Source: an uncultured Clostridia bacterium
GTDB lineage: Bacteria; Bacillota; Clostridia; TANB77; CAG-465
Direction of reading: 5' to 3'
Length of the DNA: 64,000 nucleotides
NCBI GenBank assembly: GCA_947630145.1
Contig: CANRGL010000001.1
Span: 17,289-81,288, forward strand
This document shows, piece after piece, positions 1 to 61,936 of the stretch. Made by a program: the position numbers and the translations under genes. Every line of letters starts with the position of its first letter. The stretch's first letter is position 1. The notes below the pieces were generated by a model. It made no database searches. It saw only the letters and a list, made by a program, of their open reading frames with translations, and was not told where the DNA came from.

Positions 1-980
1 ACCCATTGGTCAACGAGATGCTGATATGGACAAACAATAATAACAGCTAATTTTCCACTTAGGTCTTTATATAATTGTGTTATAGCACCTAAACCTGTAT
101 ATGTTTTTCCAGTTCCTGTTGCCATATCAAATATTCCACGATAATTTTTTTCTTTCCAATTAGCTATCGCATTTTTTTGATAATTATGCAATAATACATC
201 TGCAGGTATTTCAGGACAATTAGTAACTGATTTTAATTTATTAATTTTCTCAGATTGAATTGACTGCTTTATTTTACTTGTAAATTCTTTTTCATCAATA
301 TTCCAATCTACGCATTCTTTTTTATAAGATAATATTCTATCTTTTGCAACTTTTGGAAAATCATATGTTACTGCACTTGTATCTTCATTATTCCATAATT
401 TATCAAATGCTTTTTCTTTTATCATTACTCTATCATTATCTTCCCATGATGTAAAAACATCCACTATTTCATAATTACTTATAAAAGCATTTTCTGTTTC
501 ATTCATAGAACCAGAAAAAGCAATTATATTATTTTCATTATCATACATTAAGCCAAGTTTTTCATGATATAAGCCTAATTTTTCATCTTTTAGTGAAAAA
601 GCAATTTTAATATCCAATTTTTCCTCAGCAATTAATGTTGCTAATAAGTTAAGTCTTTCTTCTTCAAAATAATTTTGAGGCTCTGTTATATATTGTAATA
701 ATGCTCTTTCAATAATGTTTTCTCTAACTTCATATCCTTTATTAATTGCCTCTATATCTTCTTCTGATAAATTTGGAGATACTATTAATTGAATTTTACC
801 TTTATTGTTCACTAATTTACTTATTCCATAAGAGATTTCTAACAAAGAAGATGATGAAAAAAAGCCAACACTTCTTTTATATAAAACTGATTCTTTTAAC
901 AAAGGAATATAAAATTCATTAACAATATCATCTCGTGGAGTTCTATATTCTTTTTTTAAATTAATATCTAATAGACTCAT
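1..980 (-). CDS. PLD-like nuclease domain + SF2 (DEAD/DEAH-type) helicase, N-terminal part; gene continues beyond window start
   Basis: The minus-strand reading frame starts with ATG at 980 (MSLLDINLKKEY...). It has an HxK...D...GSxN PLD-like motif (HEKLGLMYDNENNIIAFSGSMN). A Walker A motif (MATGTGKTYTG) lies near 1. It is not in the ORF track because it is truncated by the window edge. Confidence 0.6.
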   Translation of the reverse strand, partial: MSLLDINLKKEYRTPRDDIVNEFYIPLLKESVLYKRSVGFFSSSSLLEISYGISKLVNNKGKIQLIVSPNLSEEDIEAINKGYEVRENIIERALLQYITEPQNYFEEERLNLLATLIAEEKLDIKIAFSLKDEKLGLYHEKLGLMYDNENNIIAFSGSMNETENAFISNYEIVDVFTSWEDNDRVMIKEKAFDKLWNNEDTSAVTYDFPKVAKDRILSYKKECVDWNIDEKEFTSKIKQSIQSEKINKLKSVTNCPEIPADVLLHNYQKNAIANWKEKNYRGIFDMATGTGKTYTGLGAITQLYKDLSGKLAVIIVCPYQHLVDQW

Positions 981-1005
981 TTTTTACCATCCTTACATTT
1001 ATATA

Positions 1006-2142
1006 TTATAAACTATTTAATGCATTAATTAAAGTATCAATATCATCCTTATTATTAAAATAATTTAACCCAACTCTTACTGTTCCACCATACTCAAGAG
1101 AACCTATAAATTCATGTATAAGAGGTGCACAATGAAACCCTGTCCTTACACATATATCAAATTCCTCATCTAATATTTTACCAACATCTTCAGAAGTATA
1201 CTTATCTACGCTAAAAGAAACAACTCCAAAAATTTTAGATAAATCATCTGGGGCATAAACATTAACTCCTTTTATAGACGACAACTGTTCTATTAAATAC
1301 ATTGTTAAGTTGCTTTCATGTTCAAATACTTTTACTTGATTTAGCCAGTCAATACTAACATTTAAACTAGATATAGCTACAATATTTGGGCTTCCAGCTT
1401 CATATCCTTCTGGGAAACTACACGGCATATTTGGATTCATGGTGTCTGAACCTGTTCCACCAAATATATTAGGTTTTATTATATCATCCTTTAATTTTAT
1501 ATACCCAGCTACTCCAAAAGAAGCATATAATGATTTATGACCTGCAAAAACAATATAATTTATATTACTATAATCGTTTATTTTTACAATACCATATCCT
1601 TGAGATGCATCTAATATGTTTATAGAATTATAGGTCTTTCCCAATTCAAATACCTCATTATAAGGAAGTAAATATCCTGTCACATTACTTACTTGTGAAA
1701 TAAAAATTGCAGCTGGATTATTTAAAATAAATAAATCTTTTGTTTTTTCGATATCTAATTTCCAAGTTTTATTATTAAATGGAAGTACCTTAATTGTAAT
1801 TTGTATTCTCTTTTTTAGTTCTTCTAATGGTCTTATTATAGAGTTATGTTCAAAAGGACTTACATAGACACAATCTCCTTTTTTTAAATTTATTCCAAAA
1901 ATAATATCATTTAAAGAACTGGTAGCAGAACTTGTAAAAACAACATTACCCTTATTTATATTGTTTAATTCTAAAATCTTCTTTCTAACATTTTCTTTTA
2001 TTATAGAAGCTTCTCGAGCAGGCTTATAACTTCCTCTTCCAGTGTTGAAAGCATTTCTATTTGCTCTATCTAATTCTTTATATACAATTTCTGGTTTTGG
2101 ATATGTAGTCGCTGCATTATCTAAATAAATCATATTGTACAC
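1006..2142 (-). CDS. class V aminotransferase / cysteine desulfurase (SspA/DndA/IscS-like)
   Basis: 378 aa. PLP-lysine motif HKSLYASFGVAGY and DASQ motif, fold V architecture. Lies 1 bp downstream of the big ATPase gene. Confidence 0.75.
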   Translation of the reverse strand: MYNMIYLDNAATTYPKPEIVYKELDRANRNAFNTGRGSYKPAREASIIKENVRKKILELNNINKGNVVFTSSATSSLNDIIFGINLKKGDCVYVSPFEHNSIIRPLEELKKRIQITIKVLPFNNKTWKLDIEKTKDLFILNNPAAIFISQVSNVTGYLLPYNEVFELGKTYNSINILDASQGYGIVKINDYSNINYIVFAGHKSLYASFGVAGYIKLKDDIIKPNIFGGTGSDTMNPNMPCSFPEGYEAGSPNIVAISSLNVSIDWLNQVKVFEHESNLTMYLIEQLSSIKGVNVYAPDDLSKIFGVVSFSVDKYTSEDVGKILDEEFDICVRTGFHCAPLIHEFIGSLEYGGTVRVGLNYFNNKDDIDTLINALNSL

Positions 2143-2143
2143 C

Positions 2144-5100
2144 TCACATATATTTTTTTATTATATTAACTAAAACACTTATCTTTTCTTTTTCTGTTAA
2201 AGAATCTCCGTATTCATTTATTACCTCTTCGATATTATTTCTCATAGTGTTTCCAATTGCTGAGATTTCATCATTTGAAATAATATATTTCTCTATTTTT
2301 TCACTACCATTAACTAGCAACAATTTATTACTTTCCTCTTTACAGTTACTTTTGTCATTTTTAACATTTTTTATATTTCCAATCATTTCTTTTAAATTTT
2401 CATTAAAACTTGTATAGTCACTTGGCTGCCAATCTTCTATATAAAATCCTGTTAAAATTTTTGCAATTTTCTCAATAACATCGTATTCGTCATGAGATGT
2501 TAAATTTCTAACATAATCTATAAATTCTTTTGTTCTAAATTCATAAATTACATACGAATTGTCTAATTCATTATCTTCATAAAATTCTTTTAATAAAGAT
2601 GTTAAACTTCCTTTAAAGCTTTTATTAAGAATTTCTTTTGTCTTAATAACCAACTTTTCTGAATATGTTGAAATAAAATTATCAAAGATTTTTTTCATAT
2701 TTTTAATTTCTTCTACTATCTTTAGATAATTAGTTGTATTAAATATATCACATAAAATTTTATACACAAATTCATTATTATTTATATCTGGCTTTAACAA
2801 TTCATTTTTTACATAGATATATTCTTCTTTTATTCCAAGATTATTAGTTTCTAAAGAATATTCTCTTAATATTCTTGGTAATGCTAAAACCCATCTTCTC
2901 ATATTATCTATTAGCTTTTTTAAATTTATTCTTTGAGTATCTAAATTAGGTACATCAAATATGTACATTAAATTTGACAAATATTTAATTTTATCTGCAG
3001 TTCCTTTTTCTGTTAATATAAAATATTTTTCTGGATTTTCATTTATTTTTATTAAATTAGTAGCATCTAAGTCTATTTCTTTATTCATGAAATAAATAAC
3101 AATTATATCTGAATAATTATATAAGGCCATTGAAATTAAAATAGGAATAATTCCTTTTCTAACAGCATATGGTTTACTTTGTAATTTTTTATATATTTTA
3201 TCAAATCCAATTTTATTGTTTTCACTTTCAGAAATAAATTTATTTATTAATTTAATAGTTTCACTTATAGATGGATTATTCTTTTTTTCAACAATAGCTT
3301 TATATATTGTTGCTTCAGCACTAGTTTTACTTTTTATTAAACTTTCATCATTATTTAATATTGTTTCTATTACTATATCTCTTGCTTTCTTTATAGGAGC
3401 AGACAGATCTCTTTTATTTATCATTTCATTATTGATAATAGGAGTTTTATCAAAAATTTTCATACATATATTTGATAAAAAAGCACTTATATTACTAACC
3501 TTTTTAAATGTCTCATTTTTATATAAATATTCTTGTATATTATCGTTTGAAAAGTACAATTTAACTTGTTCATTTATTGCCTCAATATTTTCCTTTTTTA
3601 TTAATTCTAATTCATTACCAATTTCATCTTTATTATTTGAATTTAAAATAAGATATTCTACTGCCCTATATTCCCTTAATAAAGAAATTATTGTTTTTGG
3701 AAAAATTGTTTTTGGTATTTTTAATACTACTTGTTCATTATTTTTTTTAGAGAAGTAATCTCTAATTTCTTGTATATTTCTTGACTCTCTTATTAAGTTT
3801 ATTACAATTCCATCACAATATTTTTTTTCAAATAATAAATCAAATTTACTTAAAGAAATAAGTTCTCTTTCATTCATAAATATATTGGAGAAAAATCTCG
3901 TAATTTTGAATTCTTCATTATATCTTCTTGGCAAAGAATAAATAGGATTAATAATCTCATTTAAAGTTCCTATTATATCTATGTCATAAAATTCAGACTC
4001 ACTTAATCTTTTTATTTCTTTTGATATTTCTCTATTATATATAGTTGAAAAATCTATTTCATTTGTAATTTTTTTTCGTTTTACTATGCTTTTTTCTATT
4101 AAATTTTCAATAGTTGTTTCATATTGTTCTTGAGATAAATTTAAAGATTCTTTTATTGTTTTATCATCTGGAATTAAATTTTCTAAATCATTTATCATAT
4201 ATATAATAGCTATTGATTTTATAATATTTTCTTCATTCTCACTTCTACACTTACTAATTGCATTTTCAGACTTAACCCATATCTCTTTTACATGTTGTTC
4301 GTTCTCTTTTTTTAACAGAGGTTTAAAATAATCATATATTTTATTTATATTAAATAAATCACCTGTGTTTTTTTCATTTTCTATAAAGCTTTTTAAACTA
4401 TTTGCATCATCATCAGTTAAAAAAGTAAATAATGTTCTTTCGTTCTGTGCAATTTTTTCAGATAGTTCAATAAGTGAATATGTAGTTATTGGATTAAGTG
4501 GAAAACATCCTTTAAATAGTATTTCTTCTATATTTTCGACATTTTTAAATATATTATTTTCTTTTAAATTATCATAAAAATTTACATTTTTATCATAGTA
4601 ATTATTATAATATTTTTCAAATCCTTCTTTTTTCTGTATTGCATAAGAAACTATTTCATAATTTTGTTCTAAACCTCTATTAAAGTATATTTCTTTAAAT
4701 CTGCCTTCAACAGTCTTGAATGCATTAGCTCTATCTTCATCTAAATTATTTGCGTATTGATTCATAGTCTTATGAGTTATGCAACTTAACAAAATTTGTT
4801 CATTATTTCCAGTTCTATTAGCTAATTCTGCAAAATCTTGCAATAATTTTAAATCTCTCATCATATGAGAATTATCCAAATATTCAAGAAATTTACTAAA
4901 TTCATCAAATACAATAAATATTCCTTTGTATCCTTTTTTTCCTAATTCGTAAGCCATATCTTTATAAGTTTTTATAATATCTGAATTAACTAGTGGATTA
5001 AACTCCTGGCCATGCAAAATACAACTATACACATTTTTAAAAATTTCGTAGTGCCTCTCCGAATAATTTTTTAATCCTTGTTTTAATTCTTTTAAATTAC

Positions 5101-5653
5101 AATCATACTCTTTCAAACATTTTTTTATTTCATCAATTGCATCCTTATAATTTTCTTCCCATTTTTCTATTACCTTTATAGCCACATCAAAATATGTATT
5201 TATAATTACATCTGATAATTTTTCTCTTTCAAGTGCTTCAGATAATGCTAACAAAAAAGCTTGATTTAAATCTCCATAATTACTATTTATTATTACTGGC
5301 ATTATTTTTTGTTTTTCTTTTCTTATTTTGCTAATCATTTCATATAATTCATTATCAATTTTTTTTATTTTTAAAATAAAATCATTTATATATGAAATAT
5401 CTTCTTTTTCATAGTCATCTAATAAAGTAATTAAAACAAGTAATAAATGTGACTTTCCTTTTCCGTAAGGTCCTATCAAAGTCGTAGCTCTATTTTTCCC
5501 ACTAATTATACTATTTAAATAACTTTTTAATAGCTCACATCCATCTTTTGTAGGTATATATTCTTTTAATTTTTCTATATTATTTATATCAAATTGTAAA
5601 TTTACTGAATATTGAAAATTTTCATTTACTCCTATTAAGTCTGTATATTTCAT
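2144..5653 (-). CDS. large P-loop NTPase, BrxC/PglY (DUF499)-like; candidate SspC-type ATPase
   Basis: 1169 aa with an N-terminal Walker A (LIGPYGKGKSHLL). Its size and P-loop context resemble BREX BrxC. It overlaps the upstream gene by 4 bp (ATGA), which suggests translational coupling. Confidence 0.5.
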   Translation of the reverse strand: MKYTDLIGVNENFQYSVNLQFDINNIEKLKEYIPTKDGCELLKSYLNSIISGKNRATTLIGPYGKGKSHLLLVLITLLDDYEKEDISYINDFILKIKKIDNELYEMISKIRKEKQKIMPVIINSNYGDLNQAFLLALSEALEREKLSDVIINTYFDVAIKVIEKWEENYKDAIDEIKKCLKEYDCNLKELKQGLKNYSERHYEIFKNVYSCILHGQEFNPLVNSDIIKTYKDMAYELGKKGYKGIFIVFDEFSKFLEYLDNSHMMRDLKLLQDFAELANRTGNNEQILLSCITHKTMNQYANNLDEDRANAFKTVEGRFKEIYFNRGLEQNYEIVSYAIQKKEGFEKYYNNYYDKNVNFYDNLKENNIFKNVENIEEILFKGCFPLNPITTYSLIELSEKIAQNERTLFTFLTDDDANSLKSFIENEKNTGDLFNINKIYDYFKPLLKKENEQHVKEIWVKSENAISKCRSENEENIIKSIAIIYMINDLENLIPDDKTIKESLNLSQEQYETTIENLIEKSIVKRKKITNEIDFSTIYNREISKEIKRLSESEFYDIDIIGTLNEIINPIYSLPRRYNEEFKITRFFSNIFMNERELISLSKFDLLFEKKYCDGIVINLIRESRNIQEIRDYFSKKNNEQVVLKIPKTIFPKTIISLLREYRAVEYLILNSNNKDEIGNELELIKKENIEAINEQVKLYFSNDNIQEYLYKNETFKKVSNISAFLSNICMKIFDKTPIINNEMINKRDLSAPIKKARDIVIETILNNDESLIKSKTSAEATIYKAIVEKKNNPSISETIKLINKFISESENNKIGFDKIYKKLQSKPYAVRKGIIPILISMALYNYSDIIVIYFMNKEIDLDATNLIKINENPEKYFILTEKGTADKIKYLSNLMYIFDVPNLDTQRINLKKLIDNMRRWVLALPRILREYSLETNNLGIKEEYIYVKNELLKPDINNNEFVYKILCDIFNTTNYLKIVEEIKNMKKIFDNFISTYSEKLVIKTKEILNKSFKGSLTSLLKEFYEDNELDNSYVIYEFRTKEFIDYVRNLTSHDEYDVIEKIAKILTGFYIEDWQPSDYTSFNENLKEMIGNIKNVKNDKSNCKEESNKLLLVNGSEKIEKYIISNDEISAIGNTMRNNIEEVINEYGDSLTEKEKISVLVNIIKKYM

Positions 5654-6507
5654 AGTATTCCTCCTTCGAAATATTCTTTCATAATATCCTCAAGAGATAA
5701 TTTCTTTTGAAAATAAACCATATTCAAGCCTGCAGTTCTGTTAATAATAATTAAATTATTTCTTTTCATTTCATCTAAATATTCGTTTATTAAATTTTTA
5801 TCCAAATTTAATAACTTAGCAGGACTATTATCTAATTTTAGTAGTTCATCTATGCTTATATAGTCCTTGTCATTTACAAGTTGCTCTATTAAGTAAAAAA
5901 CAATTAAATAGTTCAAATTTCTATAATCTGGTCTATTCCTTTCATAAGTATCTCTATCTATTTTCTTTATTAAATTTAAATCTGATAATGGTGATATAAA
6001 GTTATTTTCAGGATTATCAATTTTCTCATCAATAGCATATGTTTTTATTATCATGTTCACTTCATCTTGTAATATATTTTCATTATATTCTAGTTTTTCA
6101 TTTTTTAGATTTGTAACCAACTGCTCATAAATATCTCTTTTTGAAAATGACTTTCTTAAACATTTATTAAAAAACATATTATATATATAAGCATCATCTA
6201 AATTTAGCATCATATTAACATGTACTAGCCACCATGAAAATATATCTTCTAAATATGGATCATAATTCCCTATTAAATTTCCAAATTCTGATAGTTTTAT
6301 TTCTCTGTTTTCTTCTTTAATTAAGCAAGTAGCACTCATCCAATATTTTAACGATTTAACCATATTGTTTCCAATTCCCAATATGTCTGTTGCTTCTGCA
6401 GAAGAAAAAACTTTATTATTATTTTTTACATTTCTTATTCCTTTAGCCAGCCATCCTTCTCTTATTGAAAAGCTTTCATGTCTTTTCAGTTTCAATTTTA
6501 TATCCAT
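5650..6507 (-). CDS. hypothetical protein, possible SspB-like (DUF4007-like) component
   Basis: 285 aa with an N-terminal HESFSIREGWLAKG motif. It sits between the PAPS-reductase-like gene and the ATPase gene with 5 bp and -4 bp spacing. Confidence 0.3.
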   Translation of the reverse strand: MDIKLKLKRHESFSIREGWLAKGIRNVKNNNKVFSSAEATDILGIGNNMVKSLKYWMSATCLIKEENREIKLSEFGNLIGNYDPYLEDIFSWWLVHVNMMLNLDDAYIYNMFFNKCLRKSFSKRDIYEQLVTNLKNEKLEYNENILQDEVNMIIKTYAIDEKIDNPENNFISPLSDLNLIKKIDRDTYERNRPDYRNLNYLIVFYLIEQLVNDKDYISIDELLKLDNSPAKLLNLDKNLINEYLDEMKRNNLIIINRTAGLNMVYFQKKLSLEDIMKEYFEGGIL

Positions 6508-6512
6508 TCATA

Positions 6513-8264
6513 TTACCCCTTACCTTGTTTTGTTCTTAAAACTTTTTTCATATAACATCCACCACTAAAGTGTTTAACGCATTCTAGACAACTTACACAT
6601 TTATTTTCATCTATTTTATATAAAATATTAAAATTATCTCCGACTTGCTTATCTAAATGCTTTATTGTAATTGCATTAAATTTACAAACACTTTCACATG
6701 CCATACATGCTATACACGTTTGAAATTTTGTAACTTGGTTTTTTATTAACATTTCTGTATTCTTACTATTATTAAATATTTTTGTTTCTTTTAATACTGA
6801 TATTTTTAACAAGTTTTGACCAAATTTTCCCCTAAGTTTCAATATAGGTTCTTTTGTTTTCTTATCCAAAACATATACCTCTCCTAGTCTTTTATTTCCA
6901 ATGCTAAAATCAATTATTCCAAAAGGTTTAAATAATTCATATAAGTTACTATCAATAGTTTTATTTAGCTCGAAATTATATGTATTTTCTTCCAAAACAC
7001 ATGGCTTAAAGCTTAAAATAGCATTAGAACTATATTTTAAGCCATTTCCTCCTTGTCTAGCTTTCCAACCACCAGAATTAATATATTCTTTTGGATCAGG
7101 TTTTCCAACTTGAGTTGCAAAATCTAATAAAACATTATGAAATTTATCATATTGTTCTTTCATATATATATTTGATAAATATTCTGACCAAGAAGAATTA
7201 TTTGGGCAACACCAACATCCAACTCTTGAAAATCCTTTTCTATATGCACTGTTGAAAGGTATTTTTTTTGTTAATATATATAACCATACATCAAAATCTA
7301 ACCAATCTATAATTGGTGCAATAGTCTGTTGTTTTGTAATTTTTGTGCCTACACTTTCTCTTTCATATTTACTTCTTGCTAATGATTCATTCCTTCTTAA
7401 TCCTTGAAATGTTAAAATTTTTAATTTATCTTTAAATGTAGATTCAATTTTTCTAGTAATTGCACCTGTTTTAAATATTGTACAACACCATCTCATAACT
7501 CTACTAGGAGGTCCTATAACTTTGCACAATTCATTAAAATTTTGTTCCTTATTCTTAGCTATCAATAATGGAGTTGCAGGGTGAGATTTTTTAAATTCAT
7601 TTATATATTCTTTTGTTTCAGGATATTCTAGTGTAGTATCTCCATATATATGTATTATTTTTTCAGTATTAAGAGCATTTATAACTAAATCACTTGTAAC
7701 AGTTGAATCTTTTCCACCAGAAAAAGATACAAACATTGTGTCAATAGTATATTGATTTGTAATTTTTTTTATATAATCATGTGCCTCCGTAACTATAGCA
7801 TTATATCTTATTTTATTAGCTTCAATAAATTTCAAAATATATTGTTGATTAAAAAAATTATCTTCATATACTCTGTTTTTTTCTTTATTTTCTATTATCA
7901 TGTTTCTAATTTCATTTGCATCTTTATTTTCGATTATGTCTTTAATAACAAATCTGTGTTTCTTTCCATCAATAAAGTAGTTATTACCTGATGTATTCCA
8001 TATTGATTTTTCAGCATATTTAAAAGGTTCTCCCTCTATTACTTCTATCAATAATCTTTCTTCAGGAAAAACAGGTCTAATATCTGTCCCTATATATACA
8101 CCATCACCATTACATATAGAACATTTTTTTTCAAAAATAGGAATATTACAATTTTTACAATAATATATTTCTGATTTATCAACATATGTTCTTCCATTGC
8201 AAACAGGACATGTACTTGTTTCGCACATTAAATTATCACAATTATTACATACATATCTAATCAT
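6513..8264 (-). CDS. PAPS reductase-family PP-loop ATP pyrophosphatase (SspD/DndC-like) with N-terminal Zn-ribbons and C-terminal 2x[4Fe-4S] ferredoxin domain
   Basis: PP-loop SFSGGKDS. Cys clusters CWCCP and CxxC x4 at the N-terminus. C-terminal CIACMACESVC...CVSCLECVKH. The ORF extends to 8327 but AGGAGG + ATG (MIRYV) at 8264 is the likely start. Confidence 0.7.
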   Translation of the reverse strand: MIRYVCNNCDNLMCETSTCPVCNGRTYVDKSEIYYCKNCNIPIFEKKCSICNGDGVYIGTDIRPVFPEERLLIEVIEGEPFKYAEKSIWNTSGNNYFIDGKKHRFVIKDIIENKDANEIRNMIIENKEKNRVYEDNFFNQQYILKFIEANKIRYNAIVTEAHDYIKKITNQYTIDTMFVSFSGGKDSTVTSDLVINALNTEKIIHIYGDTTLEYPETKEYINEFKKSHPATPLLIAKNKEQNFNELCKVIGPPSRVMRWCCTIFKTGAITRKIESTFKDKLKILTFQGLRRNESLARSKYERESVGTKITKQQTIAPIIDWLDFDVWLYILTKKIPFNSAYRKGFSRVGCWCCPNNSSWSEYLSNIYMKEQYDKFHNVLLDFATQVGKPDPKEYINSGGWKARQGGNGLKYSSNAILSFKPCVLEENTYNFELNKTIDSNLYELFKPFGIIDFSIGNKRLGEVYVLDKKTKEPILKLRGKFGQNLLKISVLKETKIFNNSKNTEMLIKNQVTKFQTCIACMACESVCKFNAITIKHLDKQVGDNFNILYKIDENKCVSCLECVKHFSGGCYMKKVLRTKQGKG

Positions 8265-8385
8265 TTTATCTCCTCCTATTTTATCTAAAATCAAAAAAAT
8301 TATATCATATTTTTTTTGGAGAAACAATTAATAAATAAAAATTTTCTCCAGTTTTTAAAAAATTTATAGACTAGTCTAAATTAGC

Positions 8386-11160
8386 CTAGTCTATGTATTT
8401 TAAAATATCCCACTGATTAATTTCATCCTCATATTTTTCTCTACTTTCATAAATGCAATCTGTACTTGAATCTAAATAAAATTTTTTTCTATTTATAAAC
8501 TGTCTAATATAAAATTCTTCAACATTAATATTATATTTTTCTTCTATTTCATTTTTTATCTCTTTTATATATTTTTTATTTTTATTAACAAAACTATTTA
8601 TAAACTTCTCTCTTGTAGCAGACTCTTCAGTTTTAATAAATATAGTATTATTTTTCATTCTGAATCTTTTTACTTTCGGAATAATCATAATCAAGTTTTC
8701 ATAAAAACAATCTGGAAAATTATTTTTTAAAATTTTATTTTTAAAATCAGTATTTAATGTATATAAATTAAAATATTCATTTTCAGGAATAACCTTTTCA
8801 ATTTCCTCAATAAAAAGATTTATATCTTCCATAAAAATGCCCATGTCATTAAGTTTTTTTATTGTAATATATTTTTCATCTGATATTTTAAATAATTTCT
8901 TATCATAAATAAATTTATACAAATAACTAAAAAATGTTGAGCCTATCTTTTTCATTTCTTCAGGTATTTCGTAATAATCGTTAGAAATAATTATATCTTT
9001 AAGATAGCTCTCTAAATTTACTATGTTGTCTTTTATAATATAATTTCCCCTTAATTTATATCCTAATTTACTCAAATTTAATGAATTTAAAAGTCTAAAA
9101 TCATTTACATCGAATAAATCTGTTAACATTTTTTTCATTGTAGCTATAGAATATATATCTTCTTTTAGTTTTTCTTTCATAACCTCAAATTGTTTATTAT
9201 CAAATAACTGTACATTACATATAAGCATACTTAAATTTATATAATGGCTAAAGTTATTAACTACATATGATTTGAATGTATTTAACTTATGACCATAATT
9301 GTTATACATATATTTAACAAAATCATCAATACTAATAGGAGAAAGTTCTTGAATTTTCTCATCAACAAACTCTAGTTTATTATTACAATTTATAAATATA
9401 TCTGGCATTCTTGAATAAACTATACCTTCATCAAATTTTCCTAACACCTTTTTACATAAATTATGAAGTTCGTATTCGTTTCTTATATCTAATTTTTTCA
9501 TTAATAAAGGATTATCTTTATAAAATAATTCTGCTGAATATATTCCTGGCTCAATATCAAACATTTCTTTAAGTTCAGCTATGTCATCTTCTTCTATTTC
9601 ATTACAATTATAATATCTAAAACTTTTTCCTATTGTATCTAATATATAGTTTGTCCTTGTTAGTCTCGAATCTATATTTCTAAAGTCTTCTGCTGTTAGA
9701 AAATCTAAATTAAGTTTATATTCAATAACTATTTGATTATAATTTATCATTAATTCATTATAATCTACTCTTCTGTCTTCTTTTTTTAAATAAGCAATAA
9801 TAATAGGAATCGTATCTGCAACAATATTTTCTTCATTATATCTTATAATATTGTACTCTTTTCTTAAAATTTCTATCTGCTCACTTGTTAGCCTATTATC
9901 TTCTAAAAGCTCTGATGGTTTTAACTCACCATGTTTACCTTTCTCTCGCAAATAATAATATACATAATTTTCTAAATTAAATAATTTGCAAAACAATTCT
10001 TCTTTAAAATCATATTTTTCAATATAATCTAAATATTTTTCTTCTTCAATATGGTTAATTTTTTTCAATTCACTTGCTATTATTTGCCTTATTCTTTCTC
10101 TAGTTAGGTTATACTCATTACCTATTTGCACTAATGTATAACCTGATAATTTTTTCATTACAATATCATAATGATTATTATTTTTTTTAATTTTATCTAA
10201 TTCTTCTATTAATTTTGGATAAGTACTTCTATATTTACCATTCTCATAAATAATTTCATTGTTTTCTAGTAATTCATTAAAGAATTTATCAAATTTTTCT
10301 ATATTATACCTTTTTGCTTCGATAATATTTTTAATTTCTTCTTTTAATGCGACTCCTGTTTTTAGCTCTTTTCTCATTATAGTTAATATAATTTTCTTAT
10401 CTAAATTCTTCTTTATGTCTAAATCAATTATCATTTGATTGTATGCATTTAATAATCTTTCTTTCTTTGCAGCAGTTAGGTGATATTTATCTCCAATTGT
10501 TTCATCTATATCTTCAAATCTAATATTTTTTTCAACAAGTAGCTTTTCTATTAAACACCTAGAAAGTCCATATCTTTCTAATTCATATACAGAATATGGC
10601 ACATTATAATTATCATTATTTTTACTTAATTTTTTCATTTCAACTAATTCAGATATAATCTTATTTAACTTTTCTGTTGTATATCCTTTTTTTTCTATTA
10701 TTTGTACAAGTTCTTCTATCGAAAAAGTATTATGTCTAAATGAATTATTTATTATTTCCAAAGTTTTTTGAGTAGTCAATCCAAGATTTATGTTTTTATT
10801 TTCAAAAAAAGCATTTAAAGATGTAATTATTTTAGCATATGTAGAATCTCCTATATTATATTTTTCTTTTATAGTTTCATTTATGTCTTCAATTTCTATT
10901 TTTTTGCTAAATAATTTATCTATTATATTTTTTGATAATCCGTACTTAATAAGTTCATATATAGAATATTTTTTCTTATCTTCACTTATCTTCATTAAAC
11001 TAGTTTTTATTTTTAACTTTTTTTCGCTATGTGAACCTAAATACTTATCTACACAATCTATATTACTATATATATCTTCTAGATTTATTCCTTCATTATC
11101 TAAATTCATTATAGTATTTAATGGTATACCGTATTCACAAAGCAAATAAATCGATTTCAT
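8386..11160 (-). CDS. large hypothetical DNA-binding protein: three alphaCTD-like helix-hairpin-helix repeats + sigma-70 region-4-like HTH
   Basis: 924 aa. A roughly 55-aa repeat occurs three times (YELxxYGLSxxxIxKLxxxxIxxEDIxETIxxKY). Residues about 335-365 (LSGYTLVQIGNEYNLTRERIRQI) match a sigma-70 r4.2 pattern. Confidence 0.4.
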   Translation of the reverse strand: MKSIYLLCEYGIPLNTIMNLDNEGINLEDIYSNIDCVDKYLGSHSEKKLKIKTSLMKISEDKKKYSIYELIKYGLSKNIIDKLFSKKIEIEDINETIKEKYNIGDSTYAKIITSLNAFFENKNINLGLTTQKTLEIINNSFRHNTFSIEELVQIIEKKGYTTEKLNKIISELVEMKKLSKNNDNYNVPYSVYELERYGLSRCLIEKLLVEKNIRFEDIDETIGDKYHLTAAKKERLLNAYNQMIIDLDIKKNLDKKIILTIMRKELKTGVALKEEIKNIIEAKRYNIEKFDKFFNELLENNEIIYENGKYRSTYPKLIEELDKIKKNNNHYDIVMKKLSGYTLVQIGNEYNLTRERIRQIIASELKKINHIEEEKYLDYIEKYDFKEELFCKLFNLENYVYYYLREKGKHGELKPSELLEDNRLTSEQIEILRKEYNIIRYNEENIVADTIPIIIAYLKKEDRRVDYNELMINYNQIVIEYKLNLDFLTAEDFRNIDSRLTRTNYILDTIGKSFRYYNCNEIEEDDIAELKEMFDIEPGIYSAELFYKDNPLLMKKLDIRNEYELHNLCKKVLGKFDEGIVYSRMPDIFINCNNKLEFVDEKIQELSPISIDDFVKYMYNNYGHKLNTFKSYVVNNFSHYINLSMLICNVQLFDNKQFEVMKEKLKEDIYSIATMKKMLTDLFDVNDFRLLNSLNLSKLGYKLRGNYIIKDNIVNLESYLKDIIISNDYYEIPEEMKKIGSTFFSYLYKFIYDKKLFKISDEKYITIKKLNDMGIFMEDINLFIEEIEKVIPENEYFNLYTLNTDFKNKILKNNFPDCFYENLIMIIPKVKRFRMKNNTIFIKTEESATREKFINSFVNKNKKYIKEIKNEIEEKYNINVEEFYIRQFINRKKFYLDSSTDCIYESREKYEDEINQWDILKYID

Positions 11161-11322
11161 TTCTACAACTCCTATCTAATTAATTTCTACTTCATATTCT
11201 TTTCAGATTTTATTTACAAGCATTATTATATAACAAAACTAAAAAAATACCAATAGATATACATTTTTATTCTATTTCGTAAAAAAATGCTCACAGTAAT
11301 TACCTATAAGCATCTAAATATT

Positions 11323-11562
11323 TTATTTTATTTCATTTAATATTCTTTTTATGTTTCTTGCTTGTCTTCCACTTATTCTATTATTAACTCTAGCTAGATT
11401 AACTAATGCTAAGACATTATCAAAAGTACAAACAGCTGTATTTCCTCTACTTTTTTTCTCATAATAATATTTCATCTCATCTATTACATAATCAGGTGTA
11501 TATTTGGGAAGTTTATCTAATTCAGATTCCATGATTTTTCCTCTTTCTACAATTTGTGTCAA
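11323..11562 (-). CDS. small hypothetical protein divergent from XRE regulator
   Basis: 79-aa ORF, divergently arranged to the HTH gene with a palindromic operator between them. Confidence 0.35.
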   Translation of the reverse strand: MTQIVERGKIMESELDKLPKYTPDYVIDEMKYYYEKKSRGNTAVCTFDNVLALVNLARVNNRISGRQARNIKRILNEIK

Positions 11563-11608
11563 TTTATTTTAGCATATTTTCAACTTTAATGCAACAAACT
11601 ACTTCTAT

Positions 11609-11638
11609 AAATTGAAAAAATTTGCATTTTTTCAATTT
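11609..11638. promoter_or_regulatory. perfect 13-bp inverted repeat (AAATTGAAAAAAT-ttgc-ATTTTTTCAATTT), candidate operator of XRE regulator
   Basis: Read directly from the sequence in the divergent intergenic region 11563..11698. Confidence 0.45.
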
Positions 11639-11698
11639 GCCAAAGTGGTATTTGATTTTAATTTTATATAATTTTATATGGAAAAGAGGTTATAAGTT

Positions 11699-11950
11699 AT
11701 GGAATTATCAGAAGCAATTAGAAAAAGAATTAAATATTATTTGGGAAAAAATAATATGAATGTCTGGGCTTTATGTAAGTCTTCAGGAGTACCATGTTCA
11801 ACTATTTCTACTTTTATGAGTCATAGGACAGATCTTATAAGAATGGATACTTTACTTCACATTTGTGAAGGATTTAGCATTACTTTAGAAGAATTTTTTT
11901 CTGACGATATATTTAATAATACATATCACGATATTAACAACAAAGACTAA
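11699..11950 (+). CDS. XRE/Cro-C1 family HTH transcriptional regulator
   Basis: 83 aa with a HTH_3-like core (NMNVWALCKSSGVPCSTISTFMSHRTDLIRMDTLLHICEGF). One of only two plus-strand genes. Confidence 0.7.
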   Translation: MELSEAIRKRIKYYLGKNNMNVWALCKSSGVPCSTISTFMSHRTDLIRMDTLLHICEGFSITLEEFFSDDIFNNTYHDINNKD

Positions 11951-11978
11951 TAGATTTTCTTTTCTATTAGTCTTTTCA

Positions 11979-12383
11979 TTATATAATTTCAATTATTTCA
12001 TCAATTAAAACTTCAGTTTTATTTTCTAAAATTATTTTTCTATTATACATATCTATTTTTTTCGCATTACCACTTATAGTTACATACTCTCCCCCTAATT
12101 TCTTTTTATCAGGTATATAATAAGTGATTGTAACTTTAGGACTATTTAACAAATTTAATTTAATTTCTTGTAATTTTAAATCAATTTTAGTTTTTTCTTC
12201 ATCGTCAAGTTCAATTCTATCTTCAGTAATTCTTGCAGTTTCTTTAATACTATCTCCATAACCAGTAAGTGCTGCAAATGGAGCAAATTGTGCTGCTCTT
12301 TGTTCTGAAGATAATCTTGGATGCTTTTTTGAAACATGATGTGGTAAATTTATTATATCATCATACTCGTTCATATTTCTCAC
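11979..12383 (-). CDS. YolD-like protein (accessory to Y-family polymerase)
   Basis: 134 aa with a RAAQFAPFAALTGYGDSI motif typical of the YolD family. Directly downstream of the polymerase gene. Confidence 0.65.
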   Translation of the reverse strand: MRNMNEYDDIINLPHHVSKKHPRLSSEQRAAQFAPFAALTGYGDSIKETARITEDRIELDDEEKTKIDLKLQEIKLNLLNSPKVTITYYIPDKKKLGGEYVTISGNAKKIDMYNRKIILENKTEVLIDEIIEII

Positions 12384-29349: not shown

Positions 29350-32300
29350 TTAGCATCGAACTAAATTATCCTTATCTATATACTTTTCCTGTTTTTCTTC
29401 TACTTCATCTTCTAAAATTTCATGATCGTCATCCTTTATTTTTAATTCAGCATTTATTTTTTCAACTTTTCTTTGCTTTTCTTTAAGTTCTTGTTCTTGT
29501 GGAAATTCTTTTTGACTTTCTACTTTAGCATTTTCTAATTGAAACTTTGTATTATCTAACTTCTCTTTTTCAAGTGGAATATTTTTTTCAATATTCTCTA
29601 AACAATTATTTATTCTTATGATATTACCACCTGCATCTGCTCCCAAATCAATTATATAACTAAATTTATTCTTTAACTTTAATTTTATATTTCTTGTAAT
29701 AGAGTCAAAGCTAATTTCCATTTTAAATCCTCTATATTCTCCTATTTCTTTTACATCCATACTCTTTAATAACTGTGTACATTCTAAAAGTTTTTTACCT
29801 GCATCTGCTTTCTCAGAATACTCTTTTCCATCAATAATCATTGGAGAAAATCCATCTTTATTATTTTTTGTATATTCTTTAAGCCTTTTTATATCTTCTT
29901 CCATTGCTGTTATTTTATTATTTAATCTTGTAATTTCTTCAGGAAAATATTTAATTACTTTATCTTGCAAAGCATATTTTGTATTTAAAAAATTTGCTTT
30001 TAATAGTTTTAATTTTGATATTTCACTATCTAGATTAGTTTTCTCCAAAATTAAAGGATTACCTGTTGCTAATGCCTTTATTTCTCCATAGGAAAGAGCC
30101 TTTTCATCCACATCCTCCATTGTTCTTGCAGGTGTTTTTGATGTCATAATTTGCGAAATAAATTTTTGCTTTTGCTCTACCAACTGATACATATAAGCAT
30201 CAAATGTTTTTTCAGTGACATATGTATAAACATAAACTTTTTCATTTTCATTACCTTGCCTTATCATTCTTCCGTTTCTTTGTGTAAGATCGCTAGGTTT
30301 CCAAGCACAATCTAAATTATGCAATGCAATTAGCTTATTTTGAACATTTGTACCTGCTCCCATCTTAGCAGTAGAGCCAATTAAAATTCTTACTTCTCCT
30401 TCTCTTACTTTTCTGAATAATTCTTTTTTCTTTGCTTCATTATCTGCCTCGTGGATAAATCTTATTTCTTCTTCAGGTATTCCTTTTTGCATAAGTTTAA
30501 TTTTTAATTCATTATATACATCTAAAAATTCTTCTTTTTCATACCCTTTCATATCTTTTGGAGTAGATAAGTCACAAAATACAAGTTGTGTAGCTTTTAT
30601 TTCTGTGTTTTCTTTCCATATTTTATATACATTTTCGGCACATGAATTTACTTTGCTTGTATCAGAATCAGGTAGTAAAGGATTCATAAGTCTTTGTTCT
30701 AAGGCTAATTTTCTTCCCTCACTTGTAATTTTTAACATGTTATCCTTTGAAGCATCAACTGAGCCATTTCTTATTGCATCTGCTCTTTCCCCAAGTTTTG
30801 CTACCATTTCTTTCTGTATCTCACTTGGTATAACAACTACATTTATATTTTCAAATTCAGGAGTTGGAAGATTTAGTGTTTCTGATGTTTGAATATCTGC
30901 TATTTGCTTAAACATGGACATCAATTCAGGAAGATTATGAAATTTTGCAAATCTTGTTTTTGCTTTATATCCAGTTCCTTCAGGTGCTAATTCTATTGCT
31001 GTAACAGTTTCTCCAAATGTACTAGCCCAATTATCAAAGTGTTCCAATTCATTTTTCCTTAATTCGTTATATTGTAAATAACGTTGCATAGTATAAAGTT
31101 CAGCCATACTATTTGACACAGGTGTACCTGTTGCAAACACTACACCTTTTCCACCTGTAATTTCATCTAAATATCGACATTTCATAAATAAATCTGAACT
31201 TTTTTGAGCTTCAGTTTGTGCAATTCCTCCCACATTTCTCATTTTTGTATATAAAAATAAATTTTTATAATTATGAGCTTCATCTACAAATAATTTATCA
31301 ACACCCAATTCCTCAAATGTAACAACATCATCTTTTCTTTCTTGCTTATTAAGTTTATCAAGTTTTGTTTCTAATACTTTTTTTGTTTTTTCCATTTGTT
31401 TTATAGTATAATTTTCACCACGATTTTCTTTTTCTGCTGCAATTCCTCTAGTAATATCTTCAAGTTGTTCTTGTAAAAGATTTTTTTGCCTTTCTAATGA
31501 CATCGGTATTCGTTCAAATTGACTATGTCCTATAATTACAGCATCAAAATCTCCAGTTGCTATTCTACTACAAAACTTCTTTCTATTTTTAGTTTCAAAG
31601 TCTTTTTTAGTAGCAACTAAAAGATTTGCAGAAGGATATAATTGTAAAAACTCACTTGCGAATTGCTCTATAATATGATTAGGTACAACAAAAAGCGACT
31701 TATTACAAAGTCCTAGTCTTTTGCTTTCCATAGCTGCAGCTACCATTTCGTAAGTCTTACCTGCCCCTACCTCATGAGCAAGTAAAACATTATTACCATA
31801 TAAAATATGTGCAACAGCATTTAATTGGTGAGAACGAAGTTTAATTTCAGGATTCATTCCAACAAAATTTATATGAGAGCCATCATATTCACGAGTTCGT
31901 ATTGAGTTGAATTTATCATTGTATATTCTTACCAACTTATTTCTTCTATCTGGATCATTCCATATCCAATTTAAGAATTCTTCCTTTATTGCATCTTGTT
32001 TTGCACTTGCTATTGCTGTTTCTTTTTTGTTTAAAATTCTTTGTTTTCTTCCATCATCATCAATAATTGTATCAAAAATCTTTACATCTTTTAAATTAAG
32101 TGTATTCTCAATTATTTTATAAGCATTCATCCTGTATGTACCATAAGTAGAATATGCTTTAACATTATCTCTATCAGAACTTTTATTTTCAATATACCAT
32201 TCTCCAGTTATATTAGAATATTTAACTTTTATGTCAAATTGATAATATCTAGGTGTATCAAGTAATTCAAATATAAATTGGCGAATTATTTCTGTCGGTA

Positions 32301-35300
32301 TCCATGTCGAGCCAAGTTTTACTCCTATTTCACTTGCATTTAAGTCTTGTGGTATAACTTCTTTAAGTTTATCCACATTTATTTGATATTCAGGATGATC
32401 TGTTAACTGACTTTCAGCAATTTTTAGCTTTTCTCTAACATTTCCTGATAAATATTCATCTTGAGTTACATATATTTCTTCTATTGGTACTTTAAATATA
32501 ATTCCTTTTAGTTCGTTAATAATTGTATCTTTGTCTTTTTTTGTCAATTCAGACATATAATCTAAATCAACTTTTGCTTTTTCCTGTATAGATAAGATAA
32601 GTGCCTCATCTGAAGTATCAACTTCTTTTATTTCTTTTTTTGCTTTAATAGTTCGTTTGGTAAACATATCTGCTTTTCCAATAAATTTACCTTCACCATC
32701 AAGTTTTTCAAGTGAACATAAAAGGAAATAACTACTATCATTTGAAAAAGCATTTTCACATGCTCTGGAGTTAATTAAACCATATTCTTTAGTAAATTTA
32801 TCATACAACTGATTAAGTTTAGCTTGTTCTAAATAAATATCTCCGTCAGAATAATCTTCTATTTGATAATCTATAAGTTTTCTAACTTGTTCCCTTAACT
32901 CTATTAACCCTTTAATTCTATTTTTACTTGTAAGTGGCAAATCATCTTGTAATATCATTTTTGAGTTTTCTCTAAAATATATTTTATTATCAATTACTGT
33001 ATAAGAAAAATTCTTGACATCAGGTGTTGCTGGAATTGATGTATCTTCATTATCTAATTCATTTTCAACAGAAGTTACTTTAATCTCGCCATGAATATTA
33101 GAAATCGCCTTATTTAGTCTATCTTGTAAATCTTGTCCATCTATTGCTTTACAAGAAAAATCAAAGCCATATTGTGTGCTTTCTCTTTCCATTCTTCCTA
33201 ATACCATTTCAGGATTATCAATGAAATATTTATTCATTGTAATGTCATTTTCATCTTTGTCTAAATATACCCAATCAGGCATTATATCAGTTAAGTTTTC
33301 TCTTTTTTGTAAAAATATAATGTCTGAAGTAACTTTTGTTCCTGCGTTTTTAGTAAAAGTATTATCAGGTAATCTAATTGCTCCTAGTAAATCAGCTCTT
33401 TGTGCTATATACTTTCTAACTTCAGGATTTGCCTTATCCATTGTTCCTTTGCTTGAAATAAATGCTATTACACCATTAGGTCTAACTTTATCTAATGTTT
33501 TTGCAAAAAAGTAATCGTGAATAAGAAAATTATTTTTGTCATATTTTTTATCATTTACTTTGAAATCGCCAAAAGGCACATTTCCAATAGCAACATCATA
33601 AAAAGAATCTGGTAAATCAGCTTTTTCATATCCTTGTATTTTAATATTTGCATCTTGATATAACTGCTTTGCAATTCTGCCACTAATACTATCTAATTCA
33701 ACACCATATAACTTTGATTTTTGCATTTCTTGTGGCAACATTCCTAAAAAATTTCCTGTTCCACAGCTTGGTTCTAATATATTTACTTCTTCAGCTCCCA
33801 TATTTTGAATTGCTTTATATATTGCATTTATAACAATAGGTGGTGTATAAAAAGATGTTAGTGTACTTGCTCTTGCAGATTCGTATTCTTCAGCTGTTAA
33901 TAATGATTTTAATTCGTTATATTCTTGCGACCAATTATCTTTTTTCTCATCAAATACATCAGGAAATCCACCCCAACCTACATATTGCGAAAGTATTTCT
34001 TGTTCTTCTTGATTTGCAAGTCTTTTATTATCTTCAAGTTCTTTTAATAATTTTATAGCCTCTATATTTCTTTTAACTTTTTCTTTTGGAGTTCCTTCTC
34101 CTAAAAAATTATTGTCAATATGATAATTTATTTTATCTTGACTTTTATAATATTCATCTCTATTTAGAGGCTTTCCATTTTCTTCTCTTGCTTTAAATAA
34201 GTTTATTACATTTTGAGCTTGTTGTATTTCTTCTTTATTTATAACATCATTATCTTTAAAATTAAGTTCATTTTCCTTATATAGAGATATTGCTTGTAAT
34301 AAACTAATATTTCTTGATATTGGATAATGTGCTGTTTCAAGCATTGTCATATCTAACAATACTAAAGAATCTAAATCTTTATTTATTGCTTCAACTCTAT
34401 ATTTTCTATCACTTTCCAAATAAATAATTTGTCCAATTTTAAACTCTACATCTTCATCTTGTAATTCTTCTTTTAATTCATTTACAGCATTTATTGTATT
34501 ATTAACGGCAACATGTTCTACTTCTTTAAATTCATCATCTGCTTTTTGACCACTTGTTATATTATCAAAATCTTCTTGAGAAATTTCTTCTAATTTAGGA
34601 TCTGTAAGTTCTTCAATATCAGTAAATTCTGCTAATCTTTTTCTGATACTCATAATATTTTCATTTTCTTCATTATCAGAATATTCTAATAATCCACCAT
34701 CTTGCTCAACTCCTAAATTATCATATATTTCATAATAATAGCCTTCTTCATTAGTATGGAAATGAAAGTAACTACCATTTTTTAATTTATAATTTTTATC
34801 TATATTTTGAATATCAAATTCTTCATTTTCACTTGATTTTTCATTTTTGAATATTTTATCAAACATCCACTTTTCATTTTCATAGTCTTTATCAAGCCAA
34901 TGCTGATATTCTTCTTTTTCATTATCAACAAAATACCTATCTAATGAAATAAGTTCTCCAATTCGTTTTTCAATAGTATTCCAATTTATTTGCATTGTAT
35001 CTTTAACATCTCTTTTAGAAAGTTTTAGCCCTTTGCTTGGACTATATTCAACCCAAATACCATCTAGTCCTTTTACACCGTTAGTCCCATAATAGTTAAA
35101 CTCACTTTTCAAAAATTCTTGTCTTTCCTTAGAAGAAAAAGTTTCTTGATATAATCTATATACTCTAAACTTTCCGTTTTGATGTCCTGTTCCATCTTGT
35201 AATGTTTTATCAATCATTTCTTGAGTAAAAGAAAAAGCAGGAGTATTTTCTACTTCTGCTTGTTTATCAATATTTTCAATTTGTTTTTTCACACTTGGTA

Positions 35301-36525: not shown

Positions 36526-36760
36526 TATTATTCCTCCTTTCTTCCTTTTTAGCAGGTTCTTTTTCATCTTTTAAATATTGCAATGTGTTTTTTTCTTTTA
36601 CATATTTTCTTAATAATATGATATTTTTTACATCAATATCTTCTGTGATAGTTTCTAAATCTTCTATTTGCAATTTTAAAATTGAACTTTCATCTCCTTT
36701 TCCAATTTTAAATAATTTCATTAGTGTAGAATATCTTGAATTATTTTCTTTTCTTGGCAC
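36518..36760 (-). CDS. small hypothetical protein
   Basis: 80-aa ORF upstream of and overlapping the polyvalent gene start. Coding status is uncertain. Confidence 0.25.
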   Translation of the reverse strand: MPRKENNSRYSTLMKLFKIGKGDESSILKLQIEDLETITEDIDVKNIILLRKYVKEKNTLQYLKDEKEPAKKEERRNNNA

Positions 36761-57110: not shown

Positions 57111-57150
57111 AATGCGGCTTTAAACATTTAAGTTTAAAACCACATTTTTT
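57111..57150. terminator. bidirectional rho-independent terminator between convergent genes
   Basis: A 15-bp stem (AATGCGGCTTTAAAC / GTTTAAAACCACATT) with U-tracts on both sides. It is a perfect stem with 2 G-U pairs in the recG sense. Confidence 0.55.
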
Positions 57151-59225: not shown

Positions 59226-59243
59226 TTTATCACCACTTTTAAT

Positions 59244-59272
59244 AGTATACCAAAAAACATTTGTTTATTCAA
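59244..59272 (-). promoter_or_regulatory. candidate recG promoter TTGAAT-17-TATACT
   Basis: Minus-sense -35 and -10 with a 17-bp spacer. GTGGTGA RBS 4 nt before the ATG. Confidence 0.35.
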
Positions 59273-59371
59273 GTGTATTATATATTTTTGTTAAACTTAT
59301 TTTTTTATAAAGTTAGCCCTATAATAGAAAAACGAGAATGAAAAACATTCTCGTTTTAGTTGAATTGATTT

Positions 59372-59830: not shown

Positions 59831-59987
59831 AGAAAATCCTCCTAATAATGTTAATTGATTGTTTATTGCAATAATATTTGCAATACTTACATATGATTTA
59901 CGTTAACATATTATCATACTTTTACTTATATGTCAAGGATAATCTATTATTTTTATATTTTCAAGTATATTTTTTACAAAGTTAGCC

Positions 59988-60482: not shown

Positions 60483-60499
60483 CTTATCACCCCGTATTG

Positions 60500-61933: not shown

Positions 61934-61936
61934 TTA

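Follow-up and report, generated by a model that had tools for sequence, protein, structure and literature searches.

What is a gene that joins a PLD-type nuclease to a helicase doing directly behind a cysteine desulfurase? The gene occupies the first 980 nucleotides of a 64,000-nucleotide stretch from an uncultured Clostridia bacterium (contig CANRGL010000001.1, positions 17,289 to 81,288; the window, below, is this whole stretch) and is cut off by its edge. A first-pass annotation, made from the letters alone, had taken it for a candidate novel restriction partner of DNA phosphorothioation (PT) genes. In all likelihood the gene is pbeA, the first member of a complete pbeABCD set that forms one operon with an Ssp/BREX-4-type DNA phosphorothioation module. 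It is quite possible, although we would stop short of calling it probable, that this Ssp-Pbe combination is a distinct, widespread and unreported PT-based defence architecture, and a further effector choice for Ssp after SspE, SspFGH and the PglZ/BrxL of BREX type 4. The idea of a restriction or effector partner of PT modification genes thus holds up, through the recurrent co-occurrence described below, but that of a new protein or effector type does not, as the protein belongs to a known family (PADLOC PbeA, TIGR04095).

The open reading frame (ORF) starts at an ATG at 980-978 on the minus strand and leaves the window at position 1 after 326 codons. Its features within the window, together with the spacer that precedes it, are as follows.

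1..980, minus strand: pbeA, 5' part, codons 1-326 of 726 (translation and PADLOC PbeA model PDLC02704)
393..821, minus strand: PLD/HKD nuclease domain, residues 54-196 (Pfam PLDc_2, 31.1 bits, cut-off 27)
3..191, minus strand: start of a superfamily 2 (SF2), XPB/Rad25-like helicase core, residues 264-326 (Pfam ResIII)
501..566, minus strand: HKD catalytic motif H139-E-K141...D147...G157-S158-M-N160 (alignment of 9 PbeA)
102-122, minus strand: Walker A motif ATGTGKT, A287-TGTGKT-293 (alignment of 9 PbeA)
981..1005, minus strand: sspA-pbeA intergenic spacer, 25 bp (direct sequence reading)

The PADLOC model matches the fragment with E=3.8e-113 over profile positions 3-320 of 682, a value that chance would not produce, Pfam ResIII matches residues 264-326 with 48.6 bits (cut-off 22.5; E=1e-12), and the NCBIfam family TIGR04095, named 'DNA phosphorothioation system restriction enzyme', aligns through its N-terminal part (positions 2-70). 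The HxK...D...GSxN motif and the Walker A helicase core that had been picked out by eye are confirmed both by the Pfam matches (PLDc_2 and ResIII) and by conservation, with H139, K141, D147, G157, S158, N160, Q268 and the Walker A motif invariant in nine PbeA sequences that share 33-86% identity with the window protein. Between Lys and Asp, the HKD motif is longer by one residue than the textbook HxK(x)4D. Because the catalytic residues are intact, the sequence argues for an active HKD nuclease. As had been stated, the gene lies downstream of the desulfurase gene on the same strand; the gap is 25 bp (981-1005) and not 26 bp. A ribosome-binding site, AAGGATGG, is present at 987-994, 6 nt upstream of the pbeA ATG, and no terminator-like site was found on the minus strand within 1-11,900, the sspA-pbeA spacer included.

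The remainder of the gene is provided by a public metagenome contig of 65.5 kb (L116), which was found by searching for exact copies of the neighbouring SspC protein, agrees with the window at 14,999/14,999 compared positions and extends beyond window position 1. On this contig the ORF continues to 726 amino acids (aa), confirming that the gene was truncated by the window edge, and the upstream extension that had been suggested yields the full architecture of PLDc_2, ResIII, DEAD and Helicase_C domains. The full-length protein is covered almost end to end by PDLC02704 (819 bits, positions 3-680 of 682). The family itself is large, with 963 representative clusters (50% identity) matching at E<=1e-30, and its full-length members are mostly 700-750 aa. 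Nor is PbeA a solo effector: pbeB, pbeC and pbeD follow just outside the window. The pbeB gene, an ORF of 52 aa, shares 8 bp with the end of pbeA. It is overlapped in turn by 10 bp by pbeC, which encodes a 674-aa ABC ATPase (PADLOC PbeC, E=5e-106) with the CxCG hook motif KTCLCG. One bp after pbeC begins pbeD, a 185-aa ORF whose precomputed Pfam tag, DNA_S_mod_dnd_assoc_4, is weak. A local hidden Markov model (HMM) made from cassette PbeD sequences also matches the PGAP-annotated 'DNA phosphorothioation-associated protein 4' of another locus (L013).

The defining work on PbeABCD was done in haloarchaea, with the genes of Haloterrigena jeotgali A29 (Xiong et al. 2019, PMC6459918), where they come immediately after dndCDEA. 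The eight genes DndCDEA-PbeABCD gave approximately 10^4-fold protection against the virus SNJ1, and PT-modified virus escaped. Defence required PT of the host DNA, and pbeABCD was non-toxic without PT. Of the four effector genes, pbeB, pbeC and pbeD were indispensable and pbeA partly dispensable, and DNA degradation was not seen (PMC6459918). A later comparative analysis by Rakesh, Aravind and Krishnan described PbeA as an HKD endoDNase joined to an SF2 helicase, PbeB as a fast-evolving small protein, PbeC as a CxC-type ABC ATPase and PbeD as a cognate of DndE (PMC10853773).

By sequence search, the solved structures closest to a full-length PbeA homologue are XPB/Rad25 helicases; no solved PbeA structure was found, and XPB helicase cores were the sole structural matches. 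This resemblance would suit a housekeeping XPB/Rad25-like repair helicase that has come to lie next to PT genes by accident. We give that reading next to no credence, and it is in effect refuted: the protein scores 46 bits against the NCBIfam XPB model, for which the cut-off is 610, it carries an N-terminal HKD nuclease, and it is always linked to pbeBCD. Its contexts are also patchy and mobile, the window copy being cargo of an integrative conjugative element (ICE). A housekeeping helicase kept in syntenic position in relatives without the modification genes had been named as the finding that would overturn the proposal, and no pbeA-type helicase was seen in conserved synteny in genomes without PT and pbe genes.

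An HKD nuclease followed by a ResIII helicase is also the architecture of a restriction subunit. PbeA might then be a classical ATP-dependent restriction endonuclease of the type I, type III or ISP kind, cleaving unmodified targets alone with PbeBCD dispensable, and both the intact HKD motif and weak matches to type I, IIG and ISP R subunits and to LlaBIII/LlaGI fit this description. We regard it as very improbable. PbeA has no target-recognition or methyltransferase domain, pbeB, pbeC and pbeD are always co-inherited with pbeA, and in the archaeal system it is pbeBCD that is indispensable and pbeA that is partly required, with no DNA degradation and no toxicity without PT (PMC6459918). The analogy with DISARM and type III systems drawn in the first-pass annotation is domain-level only: DISARM DrmC, type III Res and PLD_Helicase/NF042964 share PLD nuclease and SF2 helicase domains with PbeA at superfamily level. 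Membership in each was rejected. No DISARM (Drm) model was matched, the generic PLD_Helicase model gave E=3e-16 versus 3.8e-113 for PbeA, NF042964 gave 100 bits versus a cut-off of 1100, and type III restriction-modification was set aside as neither a Mod subunit nor a methyltransferase is present in the operon. The preferred identification is that of pbeA, and the genes upstream of it are the following.

1006..2133, minus strand: sspA/dndA-like cysteine desulfurase, 375 aa from the database ATG (Aminotran_5, E=6e-64)
2144..5653, minus strand: sspC-like ATPase, 1169 aa (PADLOC SspC, E=6.6e-104; BrxC, 1.7e-30)
5650..6507, minus strand: sspB, DUF4007, 285 aa (Pfam DUF4007, E=2e-76; PADLOC SspB, E=2e-52)
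6513..8264, minus strand: PAPS-reductase-type sulfurtransferase with a C-terminal 4Fe-4S region, 583 aa (PAPS_reduct, E=1e-34, plus Fer4_7)
8386..11160, minus strand: accessory head gene, 924-aa multi-winged-helix protein (Sigma70_r4, E=9e-6; helix-turn-helix (HTH) at residues 338-368)
11942..11975, minus strand: terminator-like hairpin, the sole one in 1-12,000 and the upstream cassette boundary (terminator scan)

The full Ssp set (sspB, sspC, a PAPS-reductase sspD and sspA) is thus present in one cluster, with the SspD model itself scoring weakly. The desulfurase ORF spans 1006-2142 when read mechanically from a GTG start at 2142, with its TAA stop at 1006-1008; database gene calls, including that on L116, place the start at 2133 (375 aa). 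Its scores are nearly even between PADLOC SspA (6e-28) and DndA (3e-27), and it reaches 355 bits on TIGR01977. The sspC-like protein carries a precomputed Pfam BrxC-PglY_N tag. The PAPS reductase is of the BrxP type (PADLOC BrxP E=3.6e-83 versus 2.6e-11 for SspD and 1.6e-12 for DndC), yet DUF4007 is encoded by a separate gene and is not fused to it; the mechanical ORF runs up to a TTG at 8327, while database calls and homologues give 583 aa from the ATG at 8264. No match to DndD or DndE was found among the upstream module genes, and the original Dnd context of DndC, DndD and DndE is not present at the window locus. Judged by its protein families, the modification half is Ssp/BREX-4-type and not Dnd-type. 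A promoter scan was uninformative in this AT-rich DNA (97 sites versus 113 expected).

The 924-aa head protein has an AlphaFold2 model with a pLDDT of 86, in which a chain of winged-helix modules is joined by a sigma-70 region-4-like HTH. A fold search of this model against the PDB gave no match below E=1e-3 and only weak tandem-winged-helix matches. The head gene is found in most cassettes and is missing from two (L121 and L123). It is considered accessory because two of the three sampled PAPS-reductase clusters are without it. Other sigma-r4 HTH proteins, of a different architecture, adjoin pbe modules without Ssp genes (L019, L037, L039, L041, L054, L102 and L104), and the similarity of the 924-aa protein to these is confined to the HTH segment.

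The co-occurrence of the helicase gene with sspBCD-like operons, which had been proposed as a check, is positive across genomes. Twelve PbeA relatives from a genome collection (62-86% identity), all from metagenome-assembled genomes of gut Clostridia and Bacilli, have their genes in the order HTH-sspD-sspB-sspC-sspA-pbeA-pbeB-pbeC-pbeD on every contig of sufficient length. The same order is present at 61% and 49% PbeA identity, with pbeA split there, and one distant-relative locus (L015) is a decayed remnant. With the PAPS reductase as query, 7645 proteins were matched at E<=1e-20, the majority of which probably belong to the broader family, and the best 120 clusters listed are all at least 67% identical to the window protein. 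At the places sampled from three of these clusters, the full sspDBCA-pbeABCD was present in seven of seven. The surroundings of these seven are of three unrelated kinds: the present ICE, a site in the chromosome next to RNase III/RNase J, and an island of ThsB-TIR, NERD, SIR2 and SLFN-helicase genes (Thoeris/NERD).

A metagenome scan that used a diverse PbeA alignment as its query provided 77 loci, which were classified with locally built HMMs. The automatic classifier found 15 Ssp-linked and 7 Dnd-linked loci, and as two more (L052 and L055) show DndC/DndD-like neighbours the Dnd count is 7-9; most of the remaining loci lie on contigs too short to classify. Among those that are well flanked, seven are Ssp-linked, two Dnd-linked and five neither. 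In a neighbour-joining tree of 82 full-length PbeAs, the Ssp-linked proteins occupy at least two, probably three, places, namely the window clade, a distant clade at 28-30% identity to the window protein (L071, L075, L077, L079 and L087) that stands beside Dnd-linked members, and L068 alone. At least four Ssp-Pbe gene orders were found: D-B-C-A-pbeA, B-C-D-A-pbeA, pbeABCD-HTH-sspBCD, and B-C-D-pbeA without sspA. In the last of these, canonical SspB-SspC-SspD is followed directly by PbeA (L068, 4647-12100; L077, 1524-11389; also L075, L079 and L087), with PADLOC scores in L068 and L077 of 449 and 286 bits for SspD, 1324 and 1232 for SspC, and 643 and 1105 for PbeA. The ABC ATPase that follows PbeA in all five members of the distant clade is without the CxC motif, and that of L077 scores equally well on LmuB and PbeC; the PbeC-like protein of L068 has CVC.

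PbeA also occurs away from PT genes. Inspected plasmid loci carry pbeABCD alone or beside methyltransferases, consistent with the published description of Pbe modules as combining with Dnd PT genes or cytosine methylases or standing alone (PMC10853773). Viral contigs gave 19 matches, 12 of them full-length relatives and seven short and helicase-only, and no Ssp or Dnd modification genes were found near any of them (within 10 kb for the 12 full-length loci). The 12 full-length proteins lie on IMG/VR contigs (L097-L108), with a pbeC-like gene in all except the truncated L101. Prophages or phages may therefore be further carriers of Pbe-like modules.

Such loci favour an alternative in which two independent systems lie side by side, a self-contained pbeABCD and an orphan Ssp system of epigenetic PT, co-located by the clustering of defence genes on mobile elements. 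CxC/Pbe modules are found on plasmids without any PT genes, and the 12 full-length loci among the viral contigs likewise carry none. Rakesh et al. stress the decoupling of PT modification from restriction modules (PMC10853773), and 84% of sspBCD loci were reported by Wang et al. to be without a known partner and may stand alone (PMC8092258). We nevertheless hold this alternative to be unlikely. The cassette, of eight or nine genes, is intact, with gaps of 1-25 bp or overlaps between genes and no internal terminator, and it stays so in contexts as different as the ICE, the chromosomal site by RNase J and the Thoeris/NERD island. Gene orders differ between the PbeA clades that show the linkage, of which there are at least two and probably three. 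Random adjacency should also be rare, as sspBCD is present in only approximately 3% of genomes (PMC12914056), and from this frequency we infer that Ssp-PbeA adjacency exceeds chance. A single Ssp-Pbe operon is the reading that we prefer.

Several points weigh against an Ssp-linked Pbe defence module. In several relatives pbeA is split or decayed, being in two ORFs or truncated in otherwise intact cassettes (L014, 10001-12200; L016, 9983-12180; L120, 17262-19458) and reduced to a decayed remnant in L015 (10001-11338). Errors of assembly could account for this, or else repeated inactivation of the nuclease-helicase, perhaps because it lowers fitness. Through the choice of search patterns, the metagenome sample leans toward the window's clade. 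Pbe modules are also found with methyltransferases or without modification genes (plasmids and the 12 full-length viral-contig loci), and the effector is therefore not obligatorily PT-dependent. Against TIGR04095 the full-length protein gives 517 bits over positions 2-451 of 451 and does not reach the curated equivalog cut-off of 600, so that, by this score, the window PbeA is a diverged relative of the Dnd-linked proteins outside the curated equivalog. The assignment of PbeD is weak, drawn from position, size and weak profile matches. Since the archaeal system needs pbeA only in part and showed no degradation of DNA, the nuclease role of PbeA is putative. Lastly, the function of the module is a prediction, made from gene identity, operon structure, conservation, recurrence of the linkage and intact motifs, all of which are observed.

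A mechanism can be proposed from the protein families involved, in which both PT modification and defence activity are predictions; Pbe may need host PT, as the archaeal system does, or may be toxic without it. The desulfurase would pass sulfur from cysteine to the PAPS-reductase protein, and this BrxP-like ATP-pyrophosphatase/4Fe-4S protein would then transfer it to DNA at sites chosen together with SspB, a triple winged-HTH protein, and the SspC ATPase. PT marks would thereby be set on host and ICE DNA. As paralogues of DndD and DndE, the pair that scans DNA, PbeC and PbeD are predicted to survey DNA with PbeB. On PT-free incoming DNA, the XPB-like core of PbeA would translocate along double-stranded DNA with ATP, and its HKD domain would nick or cut the unmarked DNA or block its replication. 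Nuc and BfiI act as dimers, and as PbeA has one HKD motif per chain it would presumably be dimeric also. The archaeal data are compatible with cleavage, nicking or a block of replication, and also with host PT serving as an activating signal. As the Ssp recognition proteins are unrelated to DndDE, target recognition cannot simply be common to Pbe and its partner; if the families are read correctly, Pbe must either read the mark or have a specificity of its own.

The cassette lies at one end of a mobile element. From 11,979 to 57,100 (approximately 12,000 to 57,100) the window is a conjugative element, which encodes a MobA relaxase, a Toprim primase, the coupling protein VirD4 and an ATPase resembling VirB4. 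Its further genes encode UmuC/YolD, a CHAP hydrolase, a WapI-like immunity protein, two sortases, ParA/ParB and RhuM. Chromosomal recG, gatB and proS follow at 57,150-63,703. On L116, a tyrosine recombinase (integrase) gene lies approximately 3 kb beyond pbeD, in the part of that contig (22,813 onward) that is beyond the window start. The conjugative element within the window and the tyrosine recombinase past pbeD together make the ssp-pbe cassette the cargo of an ICE, carried at the end nearer to the integrase. Further genes of the element are the following.

29350-36567, minus strand: 2405-aa polyvalent protein, LPD16 domain and SNF2/ResIII/Helicase_C core
37096-40677, minus strand: large SpaA-repeat surface protein
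48170-51373, minus strand: large SpaA-repeat surface protein
51534-55559, minus strand: large SpaA-repeat surface protein

The 2405-aa protein is a typical 'large polyvalent protein' of conjugative elements. Of the three SpaA-repeat proteins, two are closely related paralogues that carry a thioester (TED) domain at the N-terminus. A sortase gene at 55686-56291 adjoins the surface proteins, which are probably adhesins or pilins of the conjugative element.

How much of this is new is limited by earlier work. The PbeA family, its domains and the principle of mixing and matching modules are already published, and HKD-SF2 genes directly downstream of Dnd modification genes have been catalogued (PMC10853773), so the advance is incremental. 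The locus places a known gene family in a combination of modules, each known already, that is widespread and apparently unreported. The earlier statement that such a gene is not a described partner of Ssp or Dnd fails for Dnd, given PbeABCD with DndCDEA (PMC6459918) and TIGR04095, and stands for Ssp, as no description of the Ssp-Pbe pairing was found in the searchable literature, although a mention in the 2020 SspABCD-SspE paper is possible. A 2025 review lists the restriction branches as dndFGH/sspFGH, sspE and pbeABCD, with pbeABCD tied to dnd, and neither Pbe nor CxC systems are mentioned in the 2026 papers on BREX-4 and BREX diversity (PMC12914056, PMC12839542).

If the Ssp-Pbe reading is correct, PbeABCD would be agnostic to the modification machinery beside it, whether double-strand PT of the Dnd kind, asymmetric PT of the Ssp/BrxP kind or cytosine methylation. 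One effector paired with three unrelated machineries would then offer a natural experiment on self/non-self discrimination by PbeABCD, with PbeCD reading the mark or its absence directly instead of borrowing the target recognition of their DndDE paralogues. A cassette borne on an ICE would shield the host and at the same time keep out mobile elements that compete with its own. The conserved Ssp-Pbe cassette, abundant in gut Firmicutes, would also explain part of the approximately 84% of sspBCD loci that are partnerless (PMC8092258). There is a practical consequence for annotation pipelines, which give PbeA only a 'DEAD/DEAH box helicase' label because it scores under the TIGR04095 cut-off, so that cassettes are missed or split into an 'orphan Ssp' and an 'incomplete Pbe/Dnd'.

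Several further known systems can be compared with the locus. Type-2 BREX-related (BR) systems (PMC12839542) likewise place an effector with an N-terminal HKD endoDNase and an SF2 helicase beside a DUF499-family ATPase. They differ in having an N6-adenine methyltransferase, DUF3780 and a Swi2/Snf2-type helicase, where the present locus has a predicted PT mark, an XPB-like helicase and a pair formed by an ABC ATPase and a DndE-like protein.

BREX type 4 (brxP-brxC-pglZ-brxL; Yuan et al. 2026, PMC12914056; PMC12839542) shares with the locus DUF4007, an ATPase of the BrxC/SspC family, an associated cysteine desulfurase and a PAPS reductase that resembles BrxP and includes a ferredoxin-like region rich in Cys. 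The published description of its PAPS reductase, with this additional region and without the cysteine dyad of DndC (PMC12839542), fits the window protein except for the separate DUF4007 gene. In Bacteroides, BrxP and BrxC with a desulfurase suffice for PT synthesis (PMC12914056). Here, DUF4007 is not fused to BrxP and the effector is PbeABCD; PglZ and BrxL found no match in the cassette or the rest of the window, and the locus was not assigned to BREX type 4.

The SspABCD-SspE and SspABCD-SspFGH systems (Wang 2021, PMC8092258) have the same kind of modification genes with an effector encoded alongside. In the present case that effector is PbeABCD and not SspE (DUF262-HNH) or SspFGH; no SspE, SspF, SspG or SspH match was found among the scanned cassette or neighbouring proteins, and membership in either defence system was set aside. 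The PAPS reductase of the window clade is nearer to BrxP than to canonical SspD, and loci that pair canonical SspD with PbeA also exist (L068, L077).

From the archaeal DndCDEA-PbeABCD system, the locus differs in its partner, an Ssp/BREX-4-type module (4Fe-4S PAPS reductase, DUF4007 and SspC) in place of DndC-DndD-DndE, and in its bacterial host, a gut Firmicute that carries the cassette on an ICE. It also has the extra multi-winged-HTH head gene, and its PbeA falls under the TIGR04095 equivalog cut-off. What the two share is the effector half and its placement: a PbeA with the same PLD/HKD, ResIII and Helicase_C architecture, followed in the same order by a tiny pbeB, a CxC-hook ABC ATPase pbeC and a DndE-like pbeD, all placed immediately after a PT operon whose last gene encodes a cysteine desulfurase.

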